From: Longimicrobiales bacterium
GTDB lineage: Bacteria; Gemmatimonadota; Gemmatimonadetes; Longimicrobiales; Gaopeijiaceae
Length of the DNA: 64,000 bases
Assembly (NCBI GenBank): GCA_965204735.1
Contig: OZ242008.1
Span: 3,616,001-3,680,000 of the forward strand
Direction of reading: 5' to 3'
Shown: one piece after another, positions 52,150 through 62,648 of the stretch
How the letters are laid out: each line of letters starts with the position of its first letter
Position numbering within the stretch: the stretch's first letter is position 1
Made by a program: the position numbers and the translations under genes
Notes under the pieces: generated by a model
Seen by the model: the letters and a program-made list of their open reading frames with translations, nothing else
What the model was told of the DNA's origin: nothing
Database searches by the model: none

Positions 52150-52201
52150 CCGGCAGTCTCGTCTTGATTGTCGCTCGATCTCGCCGTGGTTGTCGCTTCA
52201 C
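52150..52201 (-). mobile_element. Solo IS21 subtype-B terminus relic with doubled repeat
   Basis: ccggcagtctcgtcttgattgtcgctc..tctcgccgtggttgtcgct resembles 3380-3410 and the reverse complement of 2336-2383. Confidence 0.6.
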
Positions 52202-52334
52202 GTCCCCGTAATGACGACCGACTTGCCACGTATGATGCCGCATCGGATGTCGAGGTCGACGTTACCACCACGAGGCTCTCCAGCAGTGCGTCTCCCCAAG
52301 CCCGGAACCCACAAAGAAGCAAGGATCTCAGAAA

Positions 52335-52946
52335 ATGAGCAACCGCCGTACGTCTGACGCTCCCGGCCTGTCGTTCCACGATGCGGTCCAACCCTTCCTG
52401 CGGGCTTGTCCAGGACCGGACTTGGCGATGAAGGGCCTCCGCATGGTCGCCTTCCAGCCTGTGCACGGTATCTGGCCGCCGCTTCCGAAGGTGACGGACC
52501 AAGTGCCATGCATCAGCGGGAGGACGGGCCGTTTCTCGGCGCCGGAACTCCGTCTCGGCGAGCCCGTCACTCCTCCCCACCGAGAGGAAGGAGGACGTCT
52601 GCGGAACGTAAAGGAGGTGGCAAGGGCGTTGCACTGCAGTCCACAGCACCTCGCCCGATTGGCCCATGCGCGAGGATACTCATACTCGCTGGCAGTGCGC
52701 TGGATTCGGTTCCTGCTGGGAGTCGAGCTGAAGAGCCAGAACTGCGGTGGAAAAACGATCGCCAAGCGGCTCGGAATGTCGGGGCCGGAAGGCTGGACTC
52801 GGTTTGTCGTTCGGGTAGTCGGGCGGTCCCCCAAGCAACTCCCCAACCTGACGATCGAAACATGGGCGCGGGAGGGCATGTCGCGGGTCTTCCTTGCACC
52901 GATCCAGGCCCCAAAACCACTTCCCAGTAACCTGACTGACCAATAA
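52335..52946 (+). CDS. AraC-like double-HTH transcriptional regulator
   Basis: NVKEVARALHCSPQHLARL..WIRFL..TIAKRLGMS..WTRFVVRVVGRSP; N-terminus uncertain. Confidence 0.7.
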   Translation: MSNRRTSDAPGLSFHDAVQPFLRACPGPDLAMKGLRMVAFQPVHGIWPPLPKVTDQVPCISGRTGRFSAPELRLGEPVTPPHREEGGRLRNVKEVARALHCSPQHLARLAHARGYSYSLAVRWIRFLLGVELKSQNCGGKTIAKRLGMSGPEGWTRFVVRVVGRSPKQLPNLTIETWAREGMSRVFLAPIQAPKPLPSNLTDQ

Positions 52947-53071
52947 CCCGGTACTGGTCCAGTCCTCGTCTCTATACGGAGCCATCCACCAAATCCCGGT
53001 CTCGCGACAACGCCGAGCATCGAGGTTCGCACCAGCCCCCGGGCCTTGCTTCGCGTCCACGCCGACTTCGC

Positions 53072-53560
53072 TCAGGCCTCGTCTGGGCAGTTCCAGGGAC
53101 CCGGTTCACCAAGCATGCTTTCCAGACATTCGTCGCTTTCTGATTCTTCGTCCGGGTTGGCGCCTCCTCCACCACTACTGTCGTTCTCGGCCTCCTGATA
53201 GTAGAGCGATGTCGTGCAGACTTCCCACCAGAGCCAGCCAGCGCACGTCTCGTACTCCCAGCACAAGGCATCCCAGCCACCGCCGCAGCCTGCCGGCTGC
53301 GCCCACGCTGGCTGGAAAGCCGTGTCCTCTATGGCCTTGATCAGCGACATCGCAGCCAATATCCCCAGCCCAGCTCGGGTTAGGCCGTCTGCTACGACGG
53401 GCGAGACCCGCTTGTGGCCGAGTAACCTCAGGATCCGGTGTGCTGGCGAAATGTCGGCCGCGAATGCCTCTCCGCCTTTGCGTGCTTGGCGATCGTTGAC
53501 TCGGAGGGTGACGCCGACCAGGACAACAGCCGCTACGCCCAGGATGATCAGAACGGACAT
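53072..53560 (-). CDS. Exported Cys-rich peptide precursor A
   Basis: GGGGAG RBS; two hydrophobic segments; AWA-Q then CGGGWDALCWEYETCAGWLWWEVCTTSLYYQE; acidic tail with two more Cys. Confidence 0.7.
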   Translation of the reverse strand: MSVLIILGVAAVVLVGVTLRVNDRQARKGGEAFAADISPAHRILRLLGHKRVSPVVADGLTRAGLGILAAMSLIKAIEDTAFQPAWAQPAGCGGGWDALCWEYETCAGWLWWEVCTTSLYYQEAENDSSGGGGANPDEESESDECLESMLGEPGPWNCPDEA

Positions 53561-53685
53561 GATTCTCCCCTTGTTGATGAGTATGCCTTATGAACTCGGG
53601 CAACGTGATCACCCGACCGCGGTACGTCTGATGACGATCCGGATTCCAGCCACTTGGAACACGCTCCGCCAGGACATCGGCAAGA

Positions 53686-53934
53686 TCATGATCGCTCCTG
53701 AAAGAAATAGTGTCGCGTCTTGCACGACCGGTTCATCCACAGGAAGTCTATCCCCGTGCAGACCTTGATCGTCATGCAGGTCGGCGGCGTTTCGCCGCCG
53801 CAGACACCCGGCGGGTGATGCTGTGCTGCGATCGGCGACACGCGGAACTCCGTTGCCGCCACGGCGATAATCGCCAGTGCAGCTAGCCCGCGCGCCAGCT
53901 TCGAGACTGTGTTTCGCCCGCAGTTCTTCTTCAT
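53686..53934 (-). CDS. Secreted Cys-rich peptide precursor B (82 aa)
   Basis: ATGA overlap with the upstream stop; basic then hydrophobic signal, IAA-Q, CGGETPPTCMTIKVCTGIDFLWMNRSCKTRHYFFQE. Confidence 0.72.
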   Translation of the reverse strand: MKKNCGRNTVSKLARGLAALAIIAVAATEFRVSPIAAQHHPPGVCGGETPPTCMTIKVCTGIDFLWMNRSCKTRHYFFQERS

Positions 53935-54974
53935 GAGCCTTCTCTCCTGAGTTGAAGGGCAACCACTGTTGGGTACAAACCCGACTCGTCTCCAGAAACT
54001 AGGAACACCTTGTCGTTCCCGGACACGGCGACCGAGGTGGTTCTCCAAGGAAGCAGCTGTGATCCCACATACCGACCCGTTGCAACCTCGTACTTGTCGA
54101 GTACGCGCCGACGCGCTCGCGTAGTGCCGCCGGGAAGCACCAGCAAGGTGTCGTGCTTCACGGCAAGTGAATAGACCGAGCGCGTGGCTCGAGCTGTGAA
54201 GCCGGTGACGGTCGTCCCCCGCGTCGGAGAATGCGACATGACTTCGGGAAAGTCGACATGCTCCACATAGGGATAGTGTCCGGCCACGGAATCGTATTTC
54301 ATTACAAAAAATCCGTTGCCTAGCTGGAAGCCGAACACCCACCTGTCGGCCGCACCTGCCGTCTTGCCGGACCATTGCATGGAATGCATTCGGCGGAAAC
54401 CGTCCCAGGGCACTGACAACGGCGTCACGACTTCTGTCTCGGGCTGAAACAGCAACCACGGAACCGGGCCGTTGTTGCTCAAGACTACTTCACCGCTCGA
54501 GAGTTCGACCACATCCGTGATAAATCCAAAGGAATCGTCGCTGATCGCCCGTTCATGGACCAACGTGCCAGCTGGCGAAAGGTAGGCCAGCCGCCGATTC
54601 CCCGAATCGGCTATGACTACGCCGCCTAGTCGCCACGAAGTCATCGCGCGGGCGTTCTTGAGCTCTCCTGGACCTTCGCCCTGTTGTCCCCACGACCAGT
54701 CAATCGTCCCGGAAGCAGAGAACTTGCTGATCGTCTGCAGCGTGTAGTCGAGCACGTAGACGCCACCGTCTTCGGCCGCGACCAGCGCGCCCGGACTGGC
54801 CAGCACGGTGTCGTCGGCGCCGCCGTAGGCCCAAAGCGTGTCGTACCTGATCCCCTGCACGGATCGTTCTCCCGCGCCTTCCGAGAACAACGACATGACG
54901 GGATACGCTCTCTGGTCGCCGCACGCCCCGAGGAGTGAAGTCGCGACGAGAACAGGCCCCATGGCACGCCACAT
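53931..54974 (-). CDS. Six-bladed beta-propeller lipoprotein
   Basis: LLGAC lipobox; GGVYVLD, WGQQGEGPGEL, IADSGNRR, LDKY..TGRYVGS. Confidence 0.85.
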   Translation of the reverse strand: MWRAMGPVLVATSLLGACGDQRAYPVMSLFSEGAGERSVQGIRYDTLWAYGGADDTVLASPGALVAAEDGGVYVLDYTLQTISKFSASGTIDWSWGQQGEGPGELKNARAMTSWRLGGVVIADSGNRRLAYLSPAGTLVHERAISDDSFGFITDVVELSSGEVVLSNNGPVPWLLFQPETEVVTPLSVPWDGFRRMHSMQWSGKTAGAADRWVFGFQLGNGFFVMKYDSVAGHYPYVEHVDFPEVMSHSPTRGTTVTGFTARATRSVYSLAVKHDTLLVLPGGTTRARRRVLDKYEVATGRYVGSQLLPWRTTSVAVSGNDKVFLVSGDESGLYPTVVALQLRREGS

Positions 54975-55526
54975 TTACTCAGCCCTCCTCTGGGCACCCA
55001 ACCGTGCGGCCAGTTGGGACAGATCGGCGCTTTGCGACAACGTGGACGATACGTGCTCCACAAAGAGCACTCGACCGTCGTCGCCTACGCCGACCACAAC
55101 CGGTGTTCCAGTCCATGCCGCGAACCCGGCAACCTCTCGCCACCGAACAGACTCATGGGTAAACCGGACGTTGGCCCGGTCCATAACTCTTTTTAGCGCG
55201 CTCTCCGAAGAACCGTCTGCGACGACCAGCCCCAACACCGCGACTCCGGTCTCCTTAAGGCGTTGCGCCAGCCTGCCGACGGATTCCAGCGTCTCCGCAC
55301 ACTCCGCCACTGTAGACACGACCATGATCCCACCGCCTCGATTCGCCATCATCTCCAGCCGGCCGGTGAAGTCGTTGGCCGCACTGTTCTCTGTCCAGGA
55401 CGTCGCCATGAACAGGCTGCACGCCACCGTCAGCGTCCCCGCGTACCAATGCTGCTTGGTCCAGTACCAGCACTCAGCAGACAGTTGGCGCACCGCTCCT
55501 CCGGTCCTTCCGGCTGTGACTCCCAT
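54975..55526 (-). CDS. Putative thioredoxin-fold membrane-anchored protein
   Basis: GGAGG RBS; TM segment; strand then VAECAE helix; TPVVVGVGDDGRV C-terminal motif; only one Cys at the CxxC position. Confidence 0.5.
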   Translation of the reverse strand: MGVTAGRTGGAVRQLSAECWYWTKQHWYAGTLTVACSLFMATSWTENSAANDFTGRLEMMANRGGGIMVVSTVAECAETLESVGRLAQRLKETGVAVLGLVVADGSSESALKRVMDRANVRFTHESVRWREVAGFAAWTGTPVVVGVGDDGRVLFVEHVSSTLSQSADLSQLAARLGAQRRAE

Positions 55527-55703
55527 TCGGTCCCTCCGCAGGTGGCAGCCCCTTCGGCCGTCCGATACGACGAGCCGGATTCTCGAGGCCACGGGACAAG
55601 TATCGTCGAGCTGCAACCGGACCGCTACCTCCGTTCTTGCTCTATTGCGGCGTAGATTTGCTTTTTTCGCACATGGCCCGGAGCCTGCCCGGTCCCGAGC
55701 AGG

Positions 55704-57427: not shown

Positions 57428-59368
57428 TCAGTCGTCGGCGCCCGGTCCCGGCGTCGCGACCTCCGGCGGCAGCCCTTCGCTGACCGTCACGTCGGCGCCG
57501 CCGTCCAGGAAGCCGGCCAAGGCGGGCCGCTCGTTCGTCCAGTCGCGGAGGATCGCGCGCACGCGGCCGGTGGTCCTGTCCGTGACGACGGCCACGGGCG
57601 CCGCGCCCGAGGCTTCAAGCGCGAAGAAGCCGTCGGGACCCGAGAGCGCCACTTGGGCCAGCGCCCCGTCCTGGACCGGATCGTAGGGAACGGCGAAGAA
57701 GAAGCGTCCGGGGCCGAACTCCACCGGGGTGGGCGAGAAGCTGAAGGAGAAGCGCCGTTCCCCGCTTGCGCCCCAGCCCTCCAGCCTGAAAGGGCCGTCC
57801 TCCGTGGGCAGCGTCGGAACCATCTCCATCAAGAACGCGGGTTCCAGGTGCAGCTCTCCGCCGCCGGCGCTTCCGCGCAGGACCAAGCTCTTGGCCCTCC
57901 ACGTCGCGCCGTCGCCCAGGGCGACCTGGCGCCGGTCGCGAACGGCGCCGCCCTCGGGGAGTTGCGTGGAGTGTCGGTCCGTTGGTGCGGACGCCTCCGT
58001 CTCCAGGCGGTAGCGCATCGCCTTGCTGAAGTGGTAGTCGCTCACCCAGCTGGGGTAGCAGTAGCCCATCACGTCCTTGTACAGGAAGGGATCGACCAGC
58101 CGGCTGCTCTGGAAGTCGTAGCCCCATGCGCCTATGCGGCCCCCGTCGTAGGGGTACCCCTGGTCGGGGGCGGTGGCGCCTCCGCAGGGAGCATGGTGAA
58201 GTCCGAAGTTGTGGCCGAGCTCGTGGGCCAACGTCGCGCCGTTGGGTTCGCCCACGCTCACCCTGAACCCGCCGATGTAGCCCAGTCCGGTCCAGCTGGC
58301 CCCAGGAGGAGGCGAGACGGCGCCGTAGTAGTAGCCTCGCTCGCCTTCGCGCTTGTGAAGGAAAGTCAGGTCGCCCAGCAGCTTGCCCCATCCGGCGCCC
58401 GAGGTCAGGTCCACCGAAGTGGTGAAGGGCTCTCGAACCCGAACGCCCAGCTCGCCGACCGGAAGCGCGGACCGAGTCAGGTAGAGGTGGTCGGTGTCGG
58501 GCCCGATGTCGTGGGTCCAGGCAAGCACGAGCGAGTTGGAGTCGGACTCGACCAAGACGGGCACCACGGTCAGTTCCAGTCTGGGCAGGACGCGCACGTC
58601 CAGCTCGGTCCGACCGCGATCCGGCAGCCGCAGCGTGCTCCCCGGCGCCATCGGCACCGAGCCGTCGCGGTTGAGCTCCACGACCATCGCCAACCCGGGC
58701 TGCAGAAGTTCGCCCGGAACGAGGGCGTTGTACGACCGATCGAGGCGGCCTTCCTCCACGTAGTCGGGCAGAACGTCCGACTCGGAGTGCATGACGACGT
58801 CGTGGACCAGTCGGTCGCCCTCCCAGAAGAGGGCGTGGACCTGCGGCCGGTAGAAGCTGACTTGGTTGCCCGTCACGAACACGCGGAGCATCGCTTGCCG
58901 GCCGGCGATCAGCGGCACGACGCCGTTGCCCTGCTGGATGCCCTGGGTCAGATGAACGACCGGCGCGTTCAAGACCAGGCGGGGCGGGTTGATGCGCAGG
59001 CGGGCGCGGGCGGAAAGGCCCGACGCGGACACGGACACGTAGGCGTCGGCGCCCCGAAGAGCTTCCGCTCGCCCCTCCGGCGACACCCGCAGAGACGCCT
59101 CGGCCGAGGAGGACCACACCGGACGCGCCCAGGCTGGCGGCGGCCGGATCGAGTCGCCGTTCTGGTCGCGCACCACCAGCCGGTAGGCGACCACGTCGCC
59201 GACGGCGACCAGCGTGTCGGCCGGATAGAGGTCCAGCGAAGCCGGCGTCTTCTCGGGCACGAAGGCCAAGTCGGCGCAGCCGCCGGTCGTCGCCAGGGCC
59301 AGCCCCACCACGGAGAGCGTCCGAACGCGGGTCGAAGGACCGGAAGCCGCTCGAAGGGAGAGAGCCAT
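57428..59368 (-). CDS. M66-like metallopeptidase lipoprotein with Ig-like domain
   Basis: TGGC lipobox; LAHELGHNFGLHHAPCG; DVMGYC..WVSDYHF. Confidence 0.85.
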   Translation of the reverse strand: MALSLRAASGPSTRVRTLSVVGLALATTGGCADLAFVPEKTPASLDLYPADTLVAVGDVVAYRLVVRDQNGDSIRPPPAWARPVWSSSAEASLRVSPEGRAEALRGADAYVSVSASGLSARARLRINPPRLVLNAPVVHLTQGIQQGNGVVPLIAGRQAMLRVFVTGNQVSFYRPQVHALFWEGDRLVHDVVMHSESDVLPDYVEEGRLDRSYNALVPGELLQPGLAMVVELNRDGSVPMAPGSTLRLPDRGRTELDVRVLPRLELTVVPVLVESDSNSLVLAWTHDIGPDTDHLYLTRSALPVGELGVRVREPFTTSVDLTSGAGWGKLLGDLTFLHKREGERGYYYGAVSPPPGASWTGLGYIGGFRVSVGEPNGATLAHELGHNFGLHHAPCGGATAPDQGYPYDGGRIGAWGYDFQSSRLVDPFLYKDVMGYCYPSWVSDYHFSKAMRYRLETEASAPTDRHSTQLPEGGAVRDRRQVALGDGATWRAKSLVLRGSAGGGELHLEPAFLMEMVPTLPTEDGPFRLEGWGASGERRFSFSFSPTPVEFGPGRFFFAVPYDPVQDGALAQVALSGPDGFFALEASGAAPVAVVTDRTTGRVRAILRDWTNERPALAGFLDGGADVTVSEGLPPEVATPGPGADD

Positions 59369-59393: not shown

Positions 59394-60029
59394 TCAGCTC
59401 CCGCCGATCCGCACGCCGACTCCCACGTCCAGGGCCAGCGCGATCGCCCGGTCCGAGTCCGTCGCCGAGTTGGCCGTCATCCAGCGGTAGGACAAGCCGG
59501 GCATGAAGCGCATCCGCCCCTGGCCGACGGTGAGCCCTGCGGCGCCCAGCACACCCAGGCCCAGACTCGGCGCGTCGCCTCCCGTGCCGGCGCTGGTGGC
59601 GCCGACGAGGACGCCCAGCCGCAGCCACGGGCCCCCGCTTCCCCACTCGGCGCCCACGGCAGCGTGGTTCCCGACCACGGTGATCTCCTGATCCTTGCAG
59701 TACCCGTCTTCGCAGCCGAAGGCGGTTCGGTAGTACCCCGCGAAGAGGGCGATGCGCGGCCACATCTGCCGCCTGACGCTCAGGTCGAAGGACAGCGCGG
59801 GCGAGATGTCCAGGGCCGCCGCCGAGCCCGAGTGGCTTCCGACCGTCAGCCCGGACCGAAGCTCGGCCTGGGTCTGGGCGGCTGCGGGAGCGGACCAAAG
59901 GAAGACGGCGCCCGGCAGGAGGAGCGCGCCGATCGCGGCCGCGCTCATGGAACCGCGGCTGCGGAGAGGCAATCCGGCCCTGGCCCGGAGGATCGCGCCA
60001 AAGGCGCCCGGGCGTCCCGTGCGAGTCAT
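59394..60029 (-). CDS. Small outer-membrane beta-barrel-like protein
   Basis: Signal ending AAAQ; alternating strands; FGCEDGYC loop; C-terminal LDVGVGVRI. Confidence 0.65.
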   Translation of the reverse strand: MTRTGRPGAFGAILRARAGLPLRSRGSMSAAAIGALLLPGAVFLWSAPAAAQTQAELRSGLTVGSHSGSAAALDISPALSFDLSVRRQMWPRIALFAGYYRTAFGCEDGYCKDQEITVVGNHAAVGAEWGSGGPWLRLGVLVGATSAGTGGDAPSLGLGVLGAAGLTVGQGRMRFMPGLSYRWMTANSATDSDRAIALALDVGVGVRIGGS

Positions 60030-61840
60030 CGTCCGCCTCCCGGCAAGCCGTAGCTGACCAGCACCTCCACGTCCTGCGCCAGGAGGGCCGACGCGCCCGT
60101 CCAGTTCCTCGCCATCGCCCGCACCTGCCCGTCGCTTCGGTTGCGAATGATGGCCATGGGAGTCGATCCCGACGCCTCCATGACCGCTTCGCCTTCGGGG
60201 CCCGACAGAACGACCCGCTCCAGCGCGCCGTCCCGATCCAAGTCGTACGGAACGGCGACGACGAACTGACGGCCGCCGTGCTCCACCGTGCCGGGCTCGA
60301 AGGGAAACGAGAACGTCTGCCGCCCGCCGTCGCCGAAGCCCTCCAGCCGGTAGCGACCGTCCGCCTGGGGCGAACTCGGCTCGGCGTCGACCATGAACGC
60401 AGGGTCGAGCCGAAGCTCTCCGTCGTCGGCGCTGCCCCACAGCAGGAGCGTGCTCTCGGCCACGGTCCCGGCCGCCGACCGCTGCGGCGGAGCCTCTGCT
60501 TCCAGTCGGTGGTCGAACGCCTTTTGGAAGTGGTAGTCGCTCACCCAGCTTGGGTTGCAGTAGCCCATCAAGTCCTTGTACTGGGACGGGTGCACGAGCT
60601 TGCGGCCTCTGAAGTCGTAGCCCCACACGCCAATGTCGCCGCCGTCGTGGGGATAGCGGGCGTCGGGCGAGCCGGCGCGGCCGCAGGGCGCATGGAGGAG
60701 TCCCATGTTGTGGCCGAGCTCGTGCGCGAAGGTGTTGTCCGACGGTCGGCCCACGCTGACGGGCCAGCCGATCCAGCCCAGCCCGCCCCAAGCCGATCTC
60801 GGAGGCAGCGCCACCACGCCGTAGTAGTAGCCGTTTTCGCCCTCGATCTTCCACATGGCCGTGATCTCCTGCAGGAACTCTCTCCATCCGCTCTGCGTGG
60901 TGAGGTCGGCCGACGTGGTGTAGGGGTCGTGGACCGCCACCCTCATGTCGCCGATGGGCAGCAACGCGCGGGCGACTTCCATGTGGCGGCTTTCGGCCGT
61001 CATGCCCCGGGTCCAGTTGAAGACCGTTCGGTCCGGCGCCGACGCCACGAGCACGGGAACGATCGTCTGCTCCAGCGCCGGCAGCGCCCTCACGTCCAGA
61101 CGGGCCTTCCCCTGGGCGGGCACGCGGAGCTGGCTTCCCGCCAAGAGCGGCACCACGCCCTCCGGGTCCAGGTCCACGACCATCTCCACGCCCGGCTGCA
61201 GGACCCACCCCGGGACGACGGCGTTGAAGCTGCGGTCCAGCCGATCTTCCTCCACTTCCATGGGGACGAACGCGCCGGAGGGCTCCATCGTCGCGACATG
61301 AACGGCTTCTTGGCCGTGGTAGAAGGTTGCCTGCGCCCCGGGCCTGTAGAAGCTGGTCTCGTGGCCGGTCATGAACACCCGCAACAGGGCGCGTCGGCCG
61401 GCCACGAGGGGCACGCTCCCCTGTGCGTTCTGGGCGCCCTGGGTCAAGTAGACGGACGGAGCGGACAGGGCGACGCCGACGGGGTTGGCGCGCAGCCGCG
61501 TCCACGCCTCCAGGCCGGCGAGCTTCGCGGTCAGGTCGACGTAGCCGCCCCGAAGAGCCGTGGCGCGGCCGTCCCGCTCGACGGTCAACGCACCCGAGTC
61601 CGACAGGCTCCACACGGGCCGGGCCCACGACGGCGGCCCGGCCATGGGGTTGCCGTCCTGGTCCTCGACCGCGACTCGGATGCCAACCACGCCCCCGACG
61701 GTCACCAAGGTGTCGAAGGGGGCCAAGGAGAGGGACGACGGTATCTGGTCGGACTGCGTGGCCAACTCCGCGCAGCCGACGGCGAGGAGCGCGACCGGCG
61801 CCAGCCGCGACGCCCGCGGCTTGCACGAAAGGTCTGTCAT
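60026..61840 (-). CDS. M66-like metallopeptidase lipoprotein with Ig-like domain, paralogue
   Basis: AVGC lipobox; FAHELGHNMGLLHAPCG; DLMGYC..WVSDYHF. Confidence 0.85.
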   Translation of the reverse strand: MTDLSCKPRASRLAPVALLAVGCAELATQSDQIPSSLSLAPFDTLVTVGGVVGIRVAVEDQDGNPMAGPPSWARPVWSLSDSGALTVERDGRATALRGGYVDLTAKLAGLEAWTRLRANPVGVALSAPSVYLTQGAQNAQGSVPLVAGRRALLRVFMTGHETSFYRPGAQATFYHGQEAVHVATMEPSGAFVPMEVEEDRLDRSFNAVVPGWVLQPGVEMVVDLDPEGVVPLLAGSQLRVPAQGKARLDVRALPALEQTIVPVLVASAPDRTVFNWTRGMTAESRHMEVARALLPIGDMRVAVHDPYTTSADLTTQSGWREFLQEITAMWKIEGENGYYYGVVALPPRSAWGGLGWIGWPVSVGRPSDNTFAHELGHNMGLLHAPCGRAGSPDARYPHDGGDIGVWGYDFRGRKLVHPSQYKDLMGYCNPSWVSDYHFQKAFDHRLEAEAPPQRSAAGTVAESTLLLWGSADDGELRLDPAFMVDAEPSSPQADGRYRLEGFGDGGRQTFSFPFEPGTVEHGGRQFVVAVPYDLDRDGALERVVLSGPEGEAVMEASGSTPMAIIRNRSDGQVRAMARNWTGASALLAQDVEVLVSYGLPGGGR

Positions 61841-61895
61841 CCGGCAAGGATAACCCCCGGCGGACCTGCGGCGCGACCTGCCGGCGGACCGCACT

Positions 61896-62648
61896 TTAGT
61901 CGAACTCCCGGATCTTGATGTTGCGGAACCACACCGGGTCGCCGTGGTCCTGCAAGCCCACATGCCCCCGCCGGGCCCTGCCGTAGCGCGGCCACTCGGC
62001 GAACTTGGTCTTGGCGACCGCCGCTTCCCACTCGGGGGACCAGAGCTCGTAGGCCACCGCCCTCGCGCCGTTCAGCCAGTGCTCCACGTGGGCGCCGCTC
62101 ACCACGATTCGGACGCGGTTCCATTCGCCCACGGGGCGCACGACGTGGTTCAGCGGCTCGTGGAGGGCGTAGTTGGACCCCGCCGACGTCTTGGGGCTCT
62201 TGCCGTCGGCGTGGCCGTCGTCGTCGAGTATCTGCATCTCGGGGCCGCTCCAGTACGGCGCGCGTTCCTCCTCCGTGACGCGGTAGAAGATCCCGCTGTT
62301 GCCGCCGGGCCCGATCTTCCACTCCAGCGACAGCTCGAAGTCCCCGAACCGCTCGGCCGTGATCAAGTCCCCGCCGCCCCCGCTGCTCGCCCGAGGCGCG
62401 AAGGCCAGGACCCCGCCTTCCGCCGACCATCCGGCCGGAACGCTCTGCCGCCGGTAGCCCCGCCACCCGTCGAGGGACTCGCCGTCAAAGAGAAGCCGCC
62501 AGCCCTCCGCCTCCTCCGCGGGGGTCAAGCGGTTGGTAACCGGCTCCTGGCCGGGAGCCGCGCCGAAGCTCCACGCTGCGGCGACGCAGGCCAGCGGCAA
62601 GGCGAGCCGCCAACAGCGCGTCGGAGAGGGGGCAGGCATCGAAGACAT
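61896..62648 (-). CDS. DUF1080 (3-keto-disaccharide hydrolase) protein
   Basis: GWRLLFDGESLDGW, GNSGIFY, EMQILD, LQDHG..VWFRNIKI. Confidence 0.92.
   Translation of the reverse strand: MSSMPAPSPTRCWRLALPLACVAAAWSFGAAPGQEPVTNRLTPAEEAEGWRLLFDGESLDGWRGYRRQSVPAGWSAEGGVLAFAPRASSGGGGDLITAERFGDFELSLEWKIGPGGNSGIFYRVTEEERAPYWSGPEMQILDDDGHADGKSPKTSAGSNYALHEPLNHVVRPVGEWNRVRIVVSGAHVEHWLNGARAVAYELWSPEWEAAVAKTKFAEWPRYGRARRGHVGLQDHGDPVWFRNIKIREFD

Follow-up and report, generated by a model that had tools for sequence, protein, structure and literature searches.

Organisation of the locus

The window analysed here, a stretch of 64,000 nucleotides corresponding to C1:3616001-3680000 of the genome labelled G000, comes from a marine bacterium whose nearest named relatives are metagenome-assembled genomes of the Longimicrobiales. 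It contains an island of low GC (guanine plus cytosine) content with genes for a thioredoxin-like protein, a beta-propeller lipoprotein and two small four-Cys peptide precursors, designated B and A (Table 1). The peptides belong to a new family and the genes make up a new cassette; more broadly, they are of the known type in which secreted disulfide peptides are accompanied by a dedicated thiol protein. Searches of open PMC and bioRxiv texts found the system described nowhere.

All five open reading frames (ORFs) that a first-pass annotation had placed in the island were confirmed at their positions, and the ORF coordinates bore out the tightly coupled minus-strand run thioredoxin-like gene, propeller gene, precursor B, precursor A. 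The ATG of the thioredoxin-like gene is preceded by GGAGG and its stop codon abuts the propeller ATG. The propeller stop codon and the precursor B start codon overlap in ATGA, and a 125-bp gap separates precursor B from precursor A. As had been noticed, precursor B is hidden in a longer ORF, lying in frame inside a GTG-started reading frame of 257 amino acids (54459-53686). The proposed drop in GC was also found. The GC content is 0.618 at 52150-55620 as compared with a genome mean of 0.693 (standard deviation 0.033), a value equally low in 2.9% of 1193 genome windows of equal size, and GC at third codon positions is 0.69–0.77 in the island genes and 0.88–0.89 in three flanking genes. No promoter-like sites and no meaningful repeats were found in the region, and terminator-like sites numbered 3 against 2.3 expected. 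Contigs from sponge metagenome run X5 match the cassette in two pieces with approximately 96–97% identity.

Table 1. Genes and features of the island, in positions of the window.
Feature	Position	Strand	Remarks
Thioredoxin-like protein, membrane-anchored (TlpA/ResA/CcmG-like)	54975..55529	-	184 amino acids; single conserved Cys77 in [DE]C motif; T-P motif kept; unnamed family
NHL-type six-bladed beta-propeller lipoprotein	53931..54974	-	347 amino acids; lipobox Cys18; family-specific hairpin insert with P-Y-x-E-H-x-x-F-P; distant DUF5128 relative
Precursor B	53686..53934	-	82 amino acids; predicted Sec leader 1-37; four-Cys core C45, C53, C59, C71
Precursor A	53072..53560	-	162 amino acids; leader 1-87; core C92, C100, C106, C115; acidic tail with C145, C158
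AraC-like short helix-turn-helix protein	52335..52946	+	203 amino acids; convergent with the operon; accompanies some cassettes, outside the core set
Low-GC island	52150..55620		flanked by genes for a soluble lytic transglycosylase and a DUF885 protein

The peptide precursors and their family

Both core sequences read as given in the first-pass annotation. The A-x-A cleavage site before Q that it assigned to both precursors is exact in A, while B has I-A-A before Q. The leader of precursor A, 87 amino acids long, is in two parts, and the acidic tail adds two Cys, giving a predicted mature form with six. Leaders were assessed by eye and by alignment, and the Sec leaders are therefore predicted. 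When the 4.14-Mb genome was searched with the peptide profile, the A and B ORFs alone matched at E ≤ 0.05. This, together with a ratio of nonsynonymous to synonymous substitution rates (dN/dS) of 0.35 for orthologous cores, argues that the peptide ORFs are not chance occurrences. The pooled values for orthologous pairs, 0.35 for cores and 0.42 for leaders, further indicate that the peptides are coding and conserved. Positive selection on the cores was tested for by dN/dS and not found, the ratio exceeding 1 in 1 of 14 core pairs.

The family consensus is C-x6/7-C-x5-C-(hydrophobic loop)-C-xTxYxY. A motif scan of 82 loci gave 19 candidate peptides, 18 of them on the strand of the propeller gene (locus L025 being stored in minus-strand orientation), and iterating the profile enlarged the set beyond these candidates. 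In the resulting 46-row alignment the first two Cys (C1 and C2) are invariant, and C3 and C4 are present in at least 90% of rows. Searched against 1.84 billion representatives, the profile recovered 281 clusters (50% identity) at E ≤ 0.001, and 149 of the best 150 of these have a length of 64–162 amino acids. Pattern statistics were taken from the 148 of the best 150 clusters that fit the four-Cys pattern, and lean upward in conservation as the rows were chosen by the profile itself: the C1–C2 spacing is 6–8, the C2–C3 spacing is 5 in 136 of the 148, the C3–C4 loop has 8 residues in 79 (range 3–22) and contains an aromatic residue in 122, and 89% have Tyr at C4+6 and 58% have Thr at C4+2. We infer that the disulfides pair C1 with C2 and C3 with C4, since reduced members retain C1 and C2 and lose C3 and C4 jointly (L024, L057 and two in L001), and since length varies in the C3–C4 loop only.

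No credible family for the peptides was found in Pfam and NCBIfam (best E 0.0025, scattered), and the profile gave nothing credible against solved chains, with 4 rows at E ≥ 0.11 that cover the leader region only. A word-based search started from the peptide alignment yielded 8 unnamed proteins, and the ESM Atlas gave leads for precursor B below 0.9 only (Acidobacteriota and Eiseniibacteriota clusters). The Y-x-Y stem might be a mimic of the beta-signal recognised by BamA, and a search of open PMC and bioRxiv gave nothing bearing on the idea.

Some peptides depart from this pattern. A six-Cys variant, with an extra pair within the loop, occurs at L165:6013-6273, L170:6050-6328 and L171:3614-10478, beside distant propellers and without a thioredoxin-like gene. 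Further small secreted Cys peptides lie outside known cassettes at L180, L182 and L183 (genomes G028, G184 and G163, respectively), and that of L180 loosely fits the four-Cys pattern.

The thioredoxin-like protein

The structure model of the thioredoxin-like protein (predicted local distance difference test score, pLDDT, 88.9) has a long N-terminal helix at residues 12-63 followed by a TlpA/ResA/CcmG-type fold, and its best structural match has Z 11.3 and a root mean square deviation (rmsd) of 3.0 over 121 aligned residues. The N-terminal membrane anchor and the cis-Pro motif of that group are both present, T142-P143 being kept in at least 90% of sequences. A single Cys, in a [DE]C motif, is invariant in 37 of 37 aligned rows (36 homologues and the query), and CxxC at the active-site position is absent from the query and the 36 homologues. 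The invariant Cys aligns with the second Cys of the thioredoxin and DsbE motifs. With CxxC missing and one invariant Cys at that position, the protein is not a standard dithiol catalyst, and the role of disulfide oxidase or isomerase initially proposed for it was rejected. Pfam and NCBIfam gave no credible family for this protein, and its matches in the ESM Atlas are unnamed or AhpC/Redoxin clusters at 0.91–0.93.

Oxidation could be supplied from elsewhere in the genome, by a DsbA-like protein and a VKOR-like protein whose genes, recognised by motif, are adjacent at G000 C1:3227761-3229017. In one related cassette a DsbA-like CxxC protein is encoded directly after the propeller (L173:1158-1799).

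The propeller lipoprotein

The NHL-type fold of the propeller was evident from the model, which has six blades of this type (pLDDT 90). The structural matches include the Brat NHL domain (1q7f; Z 25.9, rmsd 2.9, 265 aligned) and PAL (Z 21.7), and Foldseek agrees. Family-specific residues include R37, D55, R109 and Y236-x-E238-H239, and conservation of the lipobox Cys reaches 90% in an alignment of 49 non-redundant homologues. The sole conserved His is H239 (69%), within the insert, and conserved Asp, Asn and Arg residues fall mostly in repeat motifs. No catalytic set, and no metal-ligand set such as lines the central channel of PAL, SMP-30 and paraoxonase-type propeller enzymes, is evident in these 49 homologues. 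The propeller has no match to PF17170 (DUF5128) and is absent from the 26 PF17170 matches of the genome. Its homologues match PF17170 below the cut-off only, 1 of 29 at E 0.005 and two at E 0.001–0.009.

Of 27 candidate small secreted Cys ORFs in the genome, 5 lie within 1.5 kb of a propeller gene on the same strand, A and B included. Three small secreted Cys-rich ORFs unrelated to the family (G000 C1:896497-896859, 1869444-1870499 and 1871609-1872094) are no more than 1 kb from distant propellers, and pairs of small secreted hydrophobic Cys ORFs that look bacteriocin-like by eye occur at G000 C1:908770-909521 and 215799-219534.

Co-occurrence and distribution of the cassette

Searches in Gemmatimonadota with a profile of the cores recovered homologues that keep both the Cys framework and the propeller and thioredoxin-like neighbourhood. 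The proposal is thus supported in so far as it describes a conserved module without a name, in which secreted four-Cys peptides go with a thioredoxin-fold protein and an NHL propeller, and no described family fits it. Among 75 propeller loci from GTDB, 25 have both peptide and thioredoxin-like genes, 42 have neither, 5 have the thioredoxin-like gene only and 3 a peptide gene only, which indicates that these genes are gained and lost together; as related genomes are not independent, no P-value was assigned. All 51 peptide and 33 thioredoxin-like matches at these loci are on the strand of the propeller, and the thioredoxin-like gene is almost always directly before it. A looser scan of the peptide-negative loci revealed divergent Cys peptides in a few more (L058 and L093). 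No other family tracked the cassette across the 25 loci in a noisy, unannotated clustering.

Searches seeded with the peptides gave a similar picture. Of the 20 best new loci 16 have a thioredoxin-like gene, 14 of them with all three genes and 2 with peptide and thioredoxin-like genes only; the remainder comprise 3 with the six-Cys variant by a distant propeller and 1 at a contig end. Six weaker loci include 1 with all three genes and 2 with family-like peptides alone. An optional small membrane protein was found in 10 of these 26 loci, fused to the propeller in 5 (L157, L159, L161, L163 and L164), encoded separately in 3 and found in place of the propeller in 2. This unnamed protein has a predicted periplasmic hairpin (L169:6883-7386 and L166:6967-7437) and no Pfam match, and was not found in the window genome.

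Peptide genes occur in at least 35 of 401 genomes of the phylum (at least 37 with the larger profile), in five families, counts that are lower bounds as 14 candidates were scored per genome, and the propeller subfamily occurs in 42 of the same 401. The distribution is patchy and low-GC, and a locus may encode up to 5 different peptides.

The window genome contains a second cassette at C1:1970070-1972695 (L001:14001-16714) with the order thioredoxin-like, propeller, peptide, thioredoxin-like, peptide, in which the thioredoxin-like and peptide genes are duplicated and the propeller gene is single. Of the four framework Cys, its 3-Cys peptides seem to retain only the first two, C1 and C2, and to have one further Cys upstream of these. 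They were assigned by position and motif only, and hhalign did not link them to the family (probability 16%; local hidden Markov model E 0.02 and 1.1).

Propellers without peptide genes

The window genome also has three lone close propellers; its orphan propellers include that at G000 C1:2745600-2746613. Across the GTDB loci, 32 of the 42 lone propellers are full length. In a quick tree of 80 rows, which omits 13 of the 75 GTDB loci because their propellers are short or broken, the cassette label must have changed 7 times or more on starred branches. The pooled dN/dS of the propeller is 0.27 for 8 orphan pairs and 0.23 for 7 cassette pairs. Nine genomes (96–100% complete) were chosen in which the propeller but no peptide had been matched; a peptide search of these at E ≤ 0.05 was blank in 6, and 8 lacked a strong thioredoxin-like match. 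The three weak peptide matches are other small Cys peptides, one of them family-like. These patterns suggest that the thioredoxin-like protein goes with peptide making and that the propeller may be useful without peptides.

Lone propellers that arise repeatedly and are kept by purifying selection are more in keeping with a binding role, as receptor or immunity factor, than with maturation of the peptides. Maturase is thus the least supported role among those given in the first-pass annotation, since intact copies occur without peptide genes and no conserved metal or catalytic set is evident. Orphan immunity genes are a pattern described in PMC8406203.

One of the lone propellers of the window genome lies in a group (L002; G000 C1:194408-200514) that includes genes for an extracytoplasmic function (ECF) sigma factor-like protein, a short AraC-like protein, the close propeller paralogue, further propeller-like proteins and a membrane protein, and no peptide was found there. 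The orphan propeller of L095, whose record is titled Gammaproteobacteria, groups within the Longimicrobiales copies and shares their gene neighbours, and the contig is possibly mis-binned.

Comparison with known systems

The closest arrangement is that of the Bacteroidota NVEALA peptides (PF14055), which are encoded beside DUF5128 six-bladed propeller lipoproteins (PF17170). The likeness extends to a small exported Cys peptide, a six-bladed propeller lipoprotein and a thioredoxin-fold protein. The present system differs in its Cys framework, its plain Sec-type leader and its one-Cys instead of CxxC thioredoxin-like protein. None of 46 peptides matched the PF14055 profile at E ≤ 0.1, and a search of the window genome with this profile, run without a positive control, was blank. 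The term NVEALA is absent from the open PMC and bioRxiv literature searched, and the NVEALA system is itself uncharacterised.

Bacteroidetocins (class IIf bacteriocins; PMC6671954) share a peptide of about 42 residues with four Cys, a dedicated thiol oxidoreductase and, in some loci, a membrane protein. They differ in having a double-glycine leader and an ABC (ATP-binding cassette) peptidase-transporter, and no propeller or immunity gene. The double-glycine leader and peptidase-transporter that mark class II bacteriocins and bacteroidetocins were not found here, the leaders ending in A-x-A-like sites and the island encoding no exporter or transporter.

SOQ1 and NHLRC2 contain the same two folds in the same order in a fused protein, and SOQ1 is membrane-anchored (PMC6107167; 10.1101/2024.11.01.621559). 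Here the two are encoded by separate genes, lack the CCINC/CxxC motif and share 11–13% identity with those proteins, so that the fused-domain arrangement is not present. Bacterial homologues of NHLRC2 are reported to have no conserved neighbours (PMC6107167), whereas the pair described here is accompanied by peptide genes.

The mau gene cluster likewise combines a propeller (MauB), a thioredoxin-fold helper (MauD) and a small exported Cys/Trp-rich chain (MauA). MauD has CxxC and works with MauE (10.64898/2026.03.05.709764). Methylamine dehydrogenase (MADH) has six disulfides, as compared with two per core here; the island has no MauE or MauG, and Trp is not invariant in the peptides.

Interpretation

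Given these features, the explanation that we tentatively favour is that the cassette produces Sec-exported disulfide hairpin peptides for conflict between related bacteria. The precursors would be exported via Sec and cleaved by signal peptidase I. A core of 35–45 residues would then fold into a beta-hairpin stapled by C1–C2 and C3–C4, with a constant T-x-Y-x-Y stem and a variable, hydrophobic tip that is often rich in Trp or Phe. Oxidising power would probably come from the general DsbA/VKOR pair, and the one-Cys thioredoxin-fold protein may serve at the inner membrane as a peptide-specific chaperone or disulfide shuffler. The tip would engage a membrane or envelope protein of neighbouring cells, and the propeller lipoprotein, or in some lineages the small membrane protein, would bind the peptide and shield the cell. 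A protective propeller would also account for the lone propellers of non-producers. Co-gain and co-loss of peptide and thioredoxin-like genes, lone intact propellers, variable arrays, aromatic loops and the patchy low-GC distribution are consistent with this proposal. There is a precedent in the bacteroidetocins, four-Cys peptide toxins with their own thiol oxidoreductase (PMC6671954).

Several observations weigh against a role in conflict. The cores carry no sequence-level sign of an arms race (pooled dN/dS 0.35, above 1 in 1 of 14 pairs) and are neutral to acidic, with a mean charge of -0.9, unlike typical membrane-lytic peptides. The peptides may remain periplasmic, as no route for export across the outer membrane is encoded. 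A single propeller serves up to four unlike peptides, and in two genomes with peptide and thioredoxin-like genes, G413 (92% complete) and G511 (90%), nothing matches the propeller at E ≤ 1e-5; the propeller is thus not an obligate immunity factor, and a small membrane protein takes its place in both. With 50 propeller-like ORFs in the window genome, lone copies may serve other purposes, and a divergent family-like peptide found elsewhere in the 'peptide-free' genome G028 means that peptides in trans can be overlooked.

The same orphan propellers would be seen if the peptides were secreted cues for signalling or kin recognition, with the propeller or the small membrane protein as receptor or scavenger, lone propellers as eavesdroppers and AraC-like genes as the output. 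Purifying rather than positive selection on the cores, their neutral charge, the fusion of the propeller to a membrane domain in 5 loci, and AraC-like genes next to 3 of 25 cassettes and to a lone propeller (G000 C1:195013-195640) would all suit such a role. However, 22 of the 25 cassettes have no AraC-like gene, and no kinase, anti-sigma factor or TonB-dependent receptor is evident among the recurring neighbours (clusters unannotated), which leaves signalling a somewhat unlikely alternative. A folding or redox platform of the SOQ1/NHLRC2 kind, split into two proteins, with the peptides as substrates or as small redox subunits retained in the envelope (compare MauD, MauB and MauA of methylamine dehydrogenase), is considered unlikely. 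SOQ1 (7djk) and NHLRC2 (6gc1) match the propeller model with Z 20.9 and 20.3 and the thioredoxin-like model with Z 10.3 and 9.5, and NHLRC2 forms a conserved cleft between its two domains (PMC6107167); the nearly invariable position of the thioredoxin-like gene directly before the propeller, with no exporter encoded, would also be expected of such a platform. Nevertheless, with 11–13% identity neither protein is nearer to SOQ1/NHLRC2 than to the rest of its fold, both SOQ1/NHLRC2 and MauD have a CxxC that is absent here, propellers are retained intact where the two partners are lacking, and arrays of variable peptides are ill-suited to a fixed subunit.

Action on a sponge host, with the NHL propeller as a eukaryotic-like protein, would agree with the origin of the closest relatives in sponge metagenomes (run X5) and with the reported listing of NHL proteins among the eukaryotic-like proteins of sponge symbionts. 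It is improbable, as the full cassette also occurs outside this symbiont family, in other families of the order and class (f2, f3, f4, f5 and f7). Equally hard to credit is a structural function, with the hairpins as surface-layer, amyloid or filament subunits and the propeller as an assembly platform: a Thr/Tyr-rich strand with a hydrophobic tip and no enzyme motif would be in keeping with it, and the patchy island-borne distribution, the mixed arrays and the lone propellers would not.

What stood of the signalling or toxin module first proposed is an unnamed secreted peptide module, a candidate toxin or signal system. The description of the peptides as RiPP-like (ribosomally synthesised and post-translationally modified) holds loosely for their predicted disulfide bonds, and not beyond these, as no modifying enzyme (radical SAM, LanM, YcaO etc.) was found in the island.

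A broader and still more guarded proposal is that the cassette might be the Gemmatimonadota branch of an undescribed cross-phylum class. Its members would comprise Sec-exported hairpins in hundreds of variants, with the T-x-Y-x-Y stem held constant and the hydrophobic tip exchangeable, a one-Cys thioredoxin-like chaperone, and a propeller lipoprotein that reads the hairpins and is kept by non-producers for protection or eavesdropping. If so, the class would amount to a library, made by nature, of stapled hairpins that act as ligands of cognate receptors and govern kin recognition or competition in sponge and other microbiomes. Such a large natural set of stapled hairpins with candidate receptors would be of interest for microbial ecology and as a source of scaffolds, and may hint at the ligands of the many DUF5128-like propeller lipoproteins of these bacteria. 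For a phylum that is mostly uncultured, the locus adds the peptide, the one-Cys thioredoxin-like protein and the propeller subfamily as three protein families without a name, together with an optional membrane protein, and offers a clean test case for the arrangement of peptide, propeller and thioredoxin genes. As the cores are 35–45 residues long, with disulfides as their only predicted modification, synthesis and assay are feasible at once.

Neighbouring genes and other observations

The AraC-like regulator had been counted as a part of the system. It was discarded as such, since the gene is on the plus strand and convergent with the operon, and homologues stand beside 3 of 25 cassettes. The protein matches HTH_18 with E 6e-6 and 26.9 bits, the curated cut-off being 33.6.

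Elsewhere in the window, two tandem paralogous lipoproteins with Peptidase_M66-like metalloprotease domains are encoded at 57428-59368 and 60026-61963. Four near-identical lipoproteins of 163–164 amino acids, matching no tested family, are encoded at G000 C1:798584, 2989797, 3494824 and 3495591.

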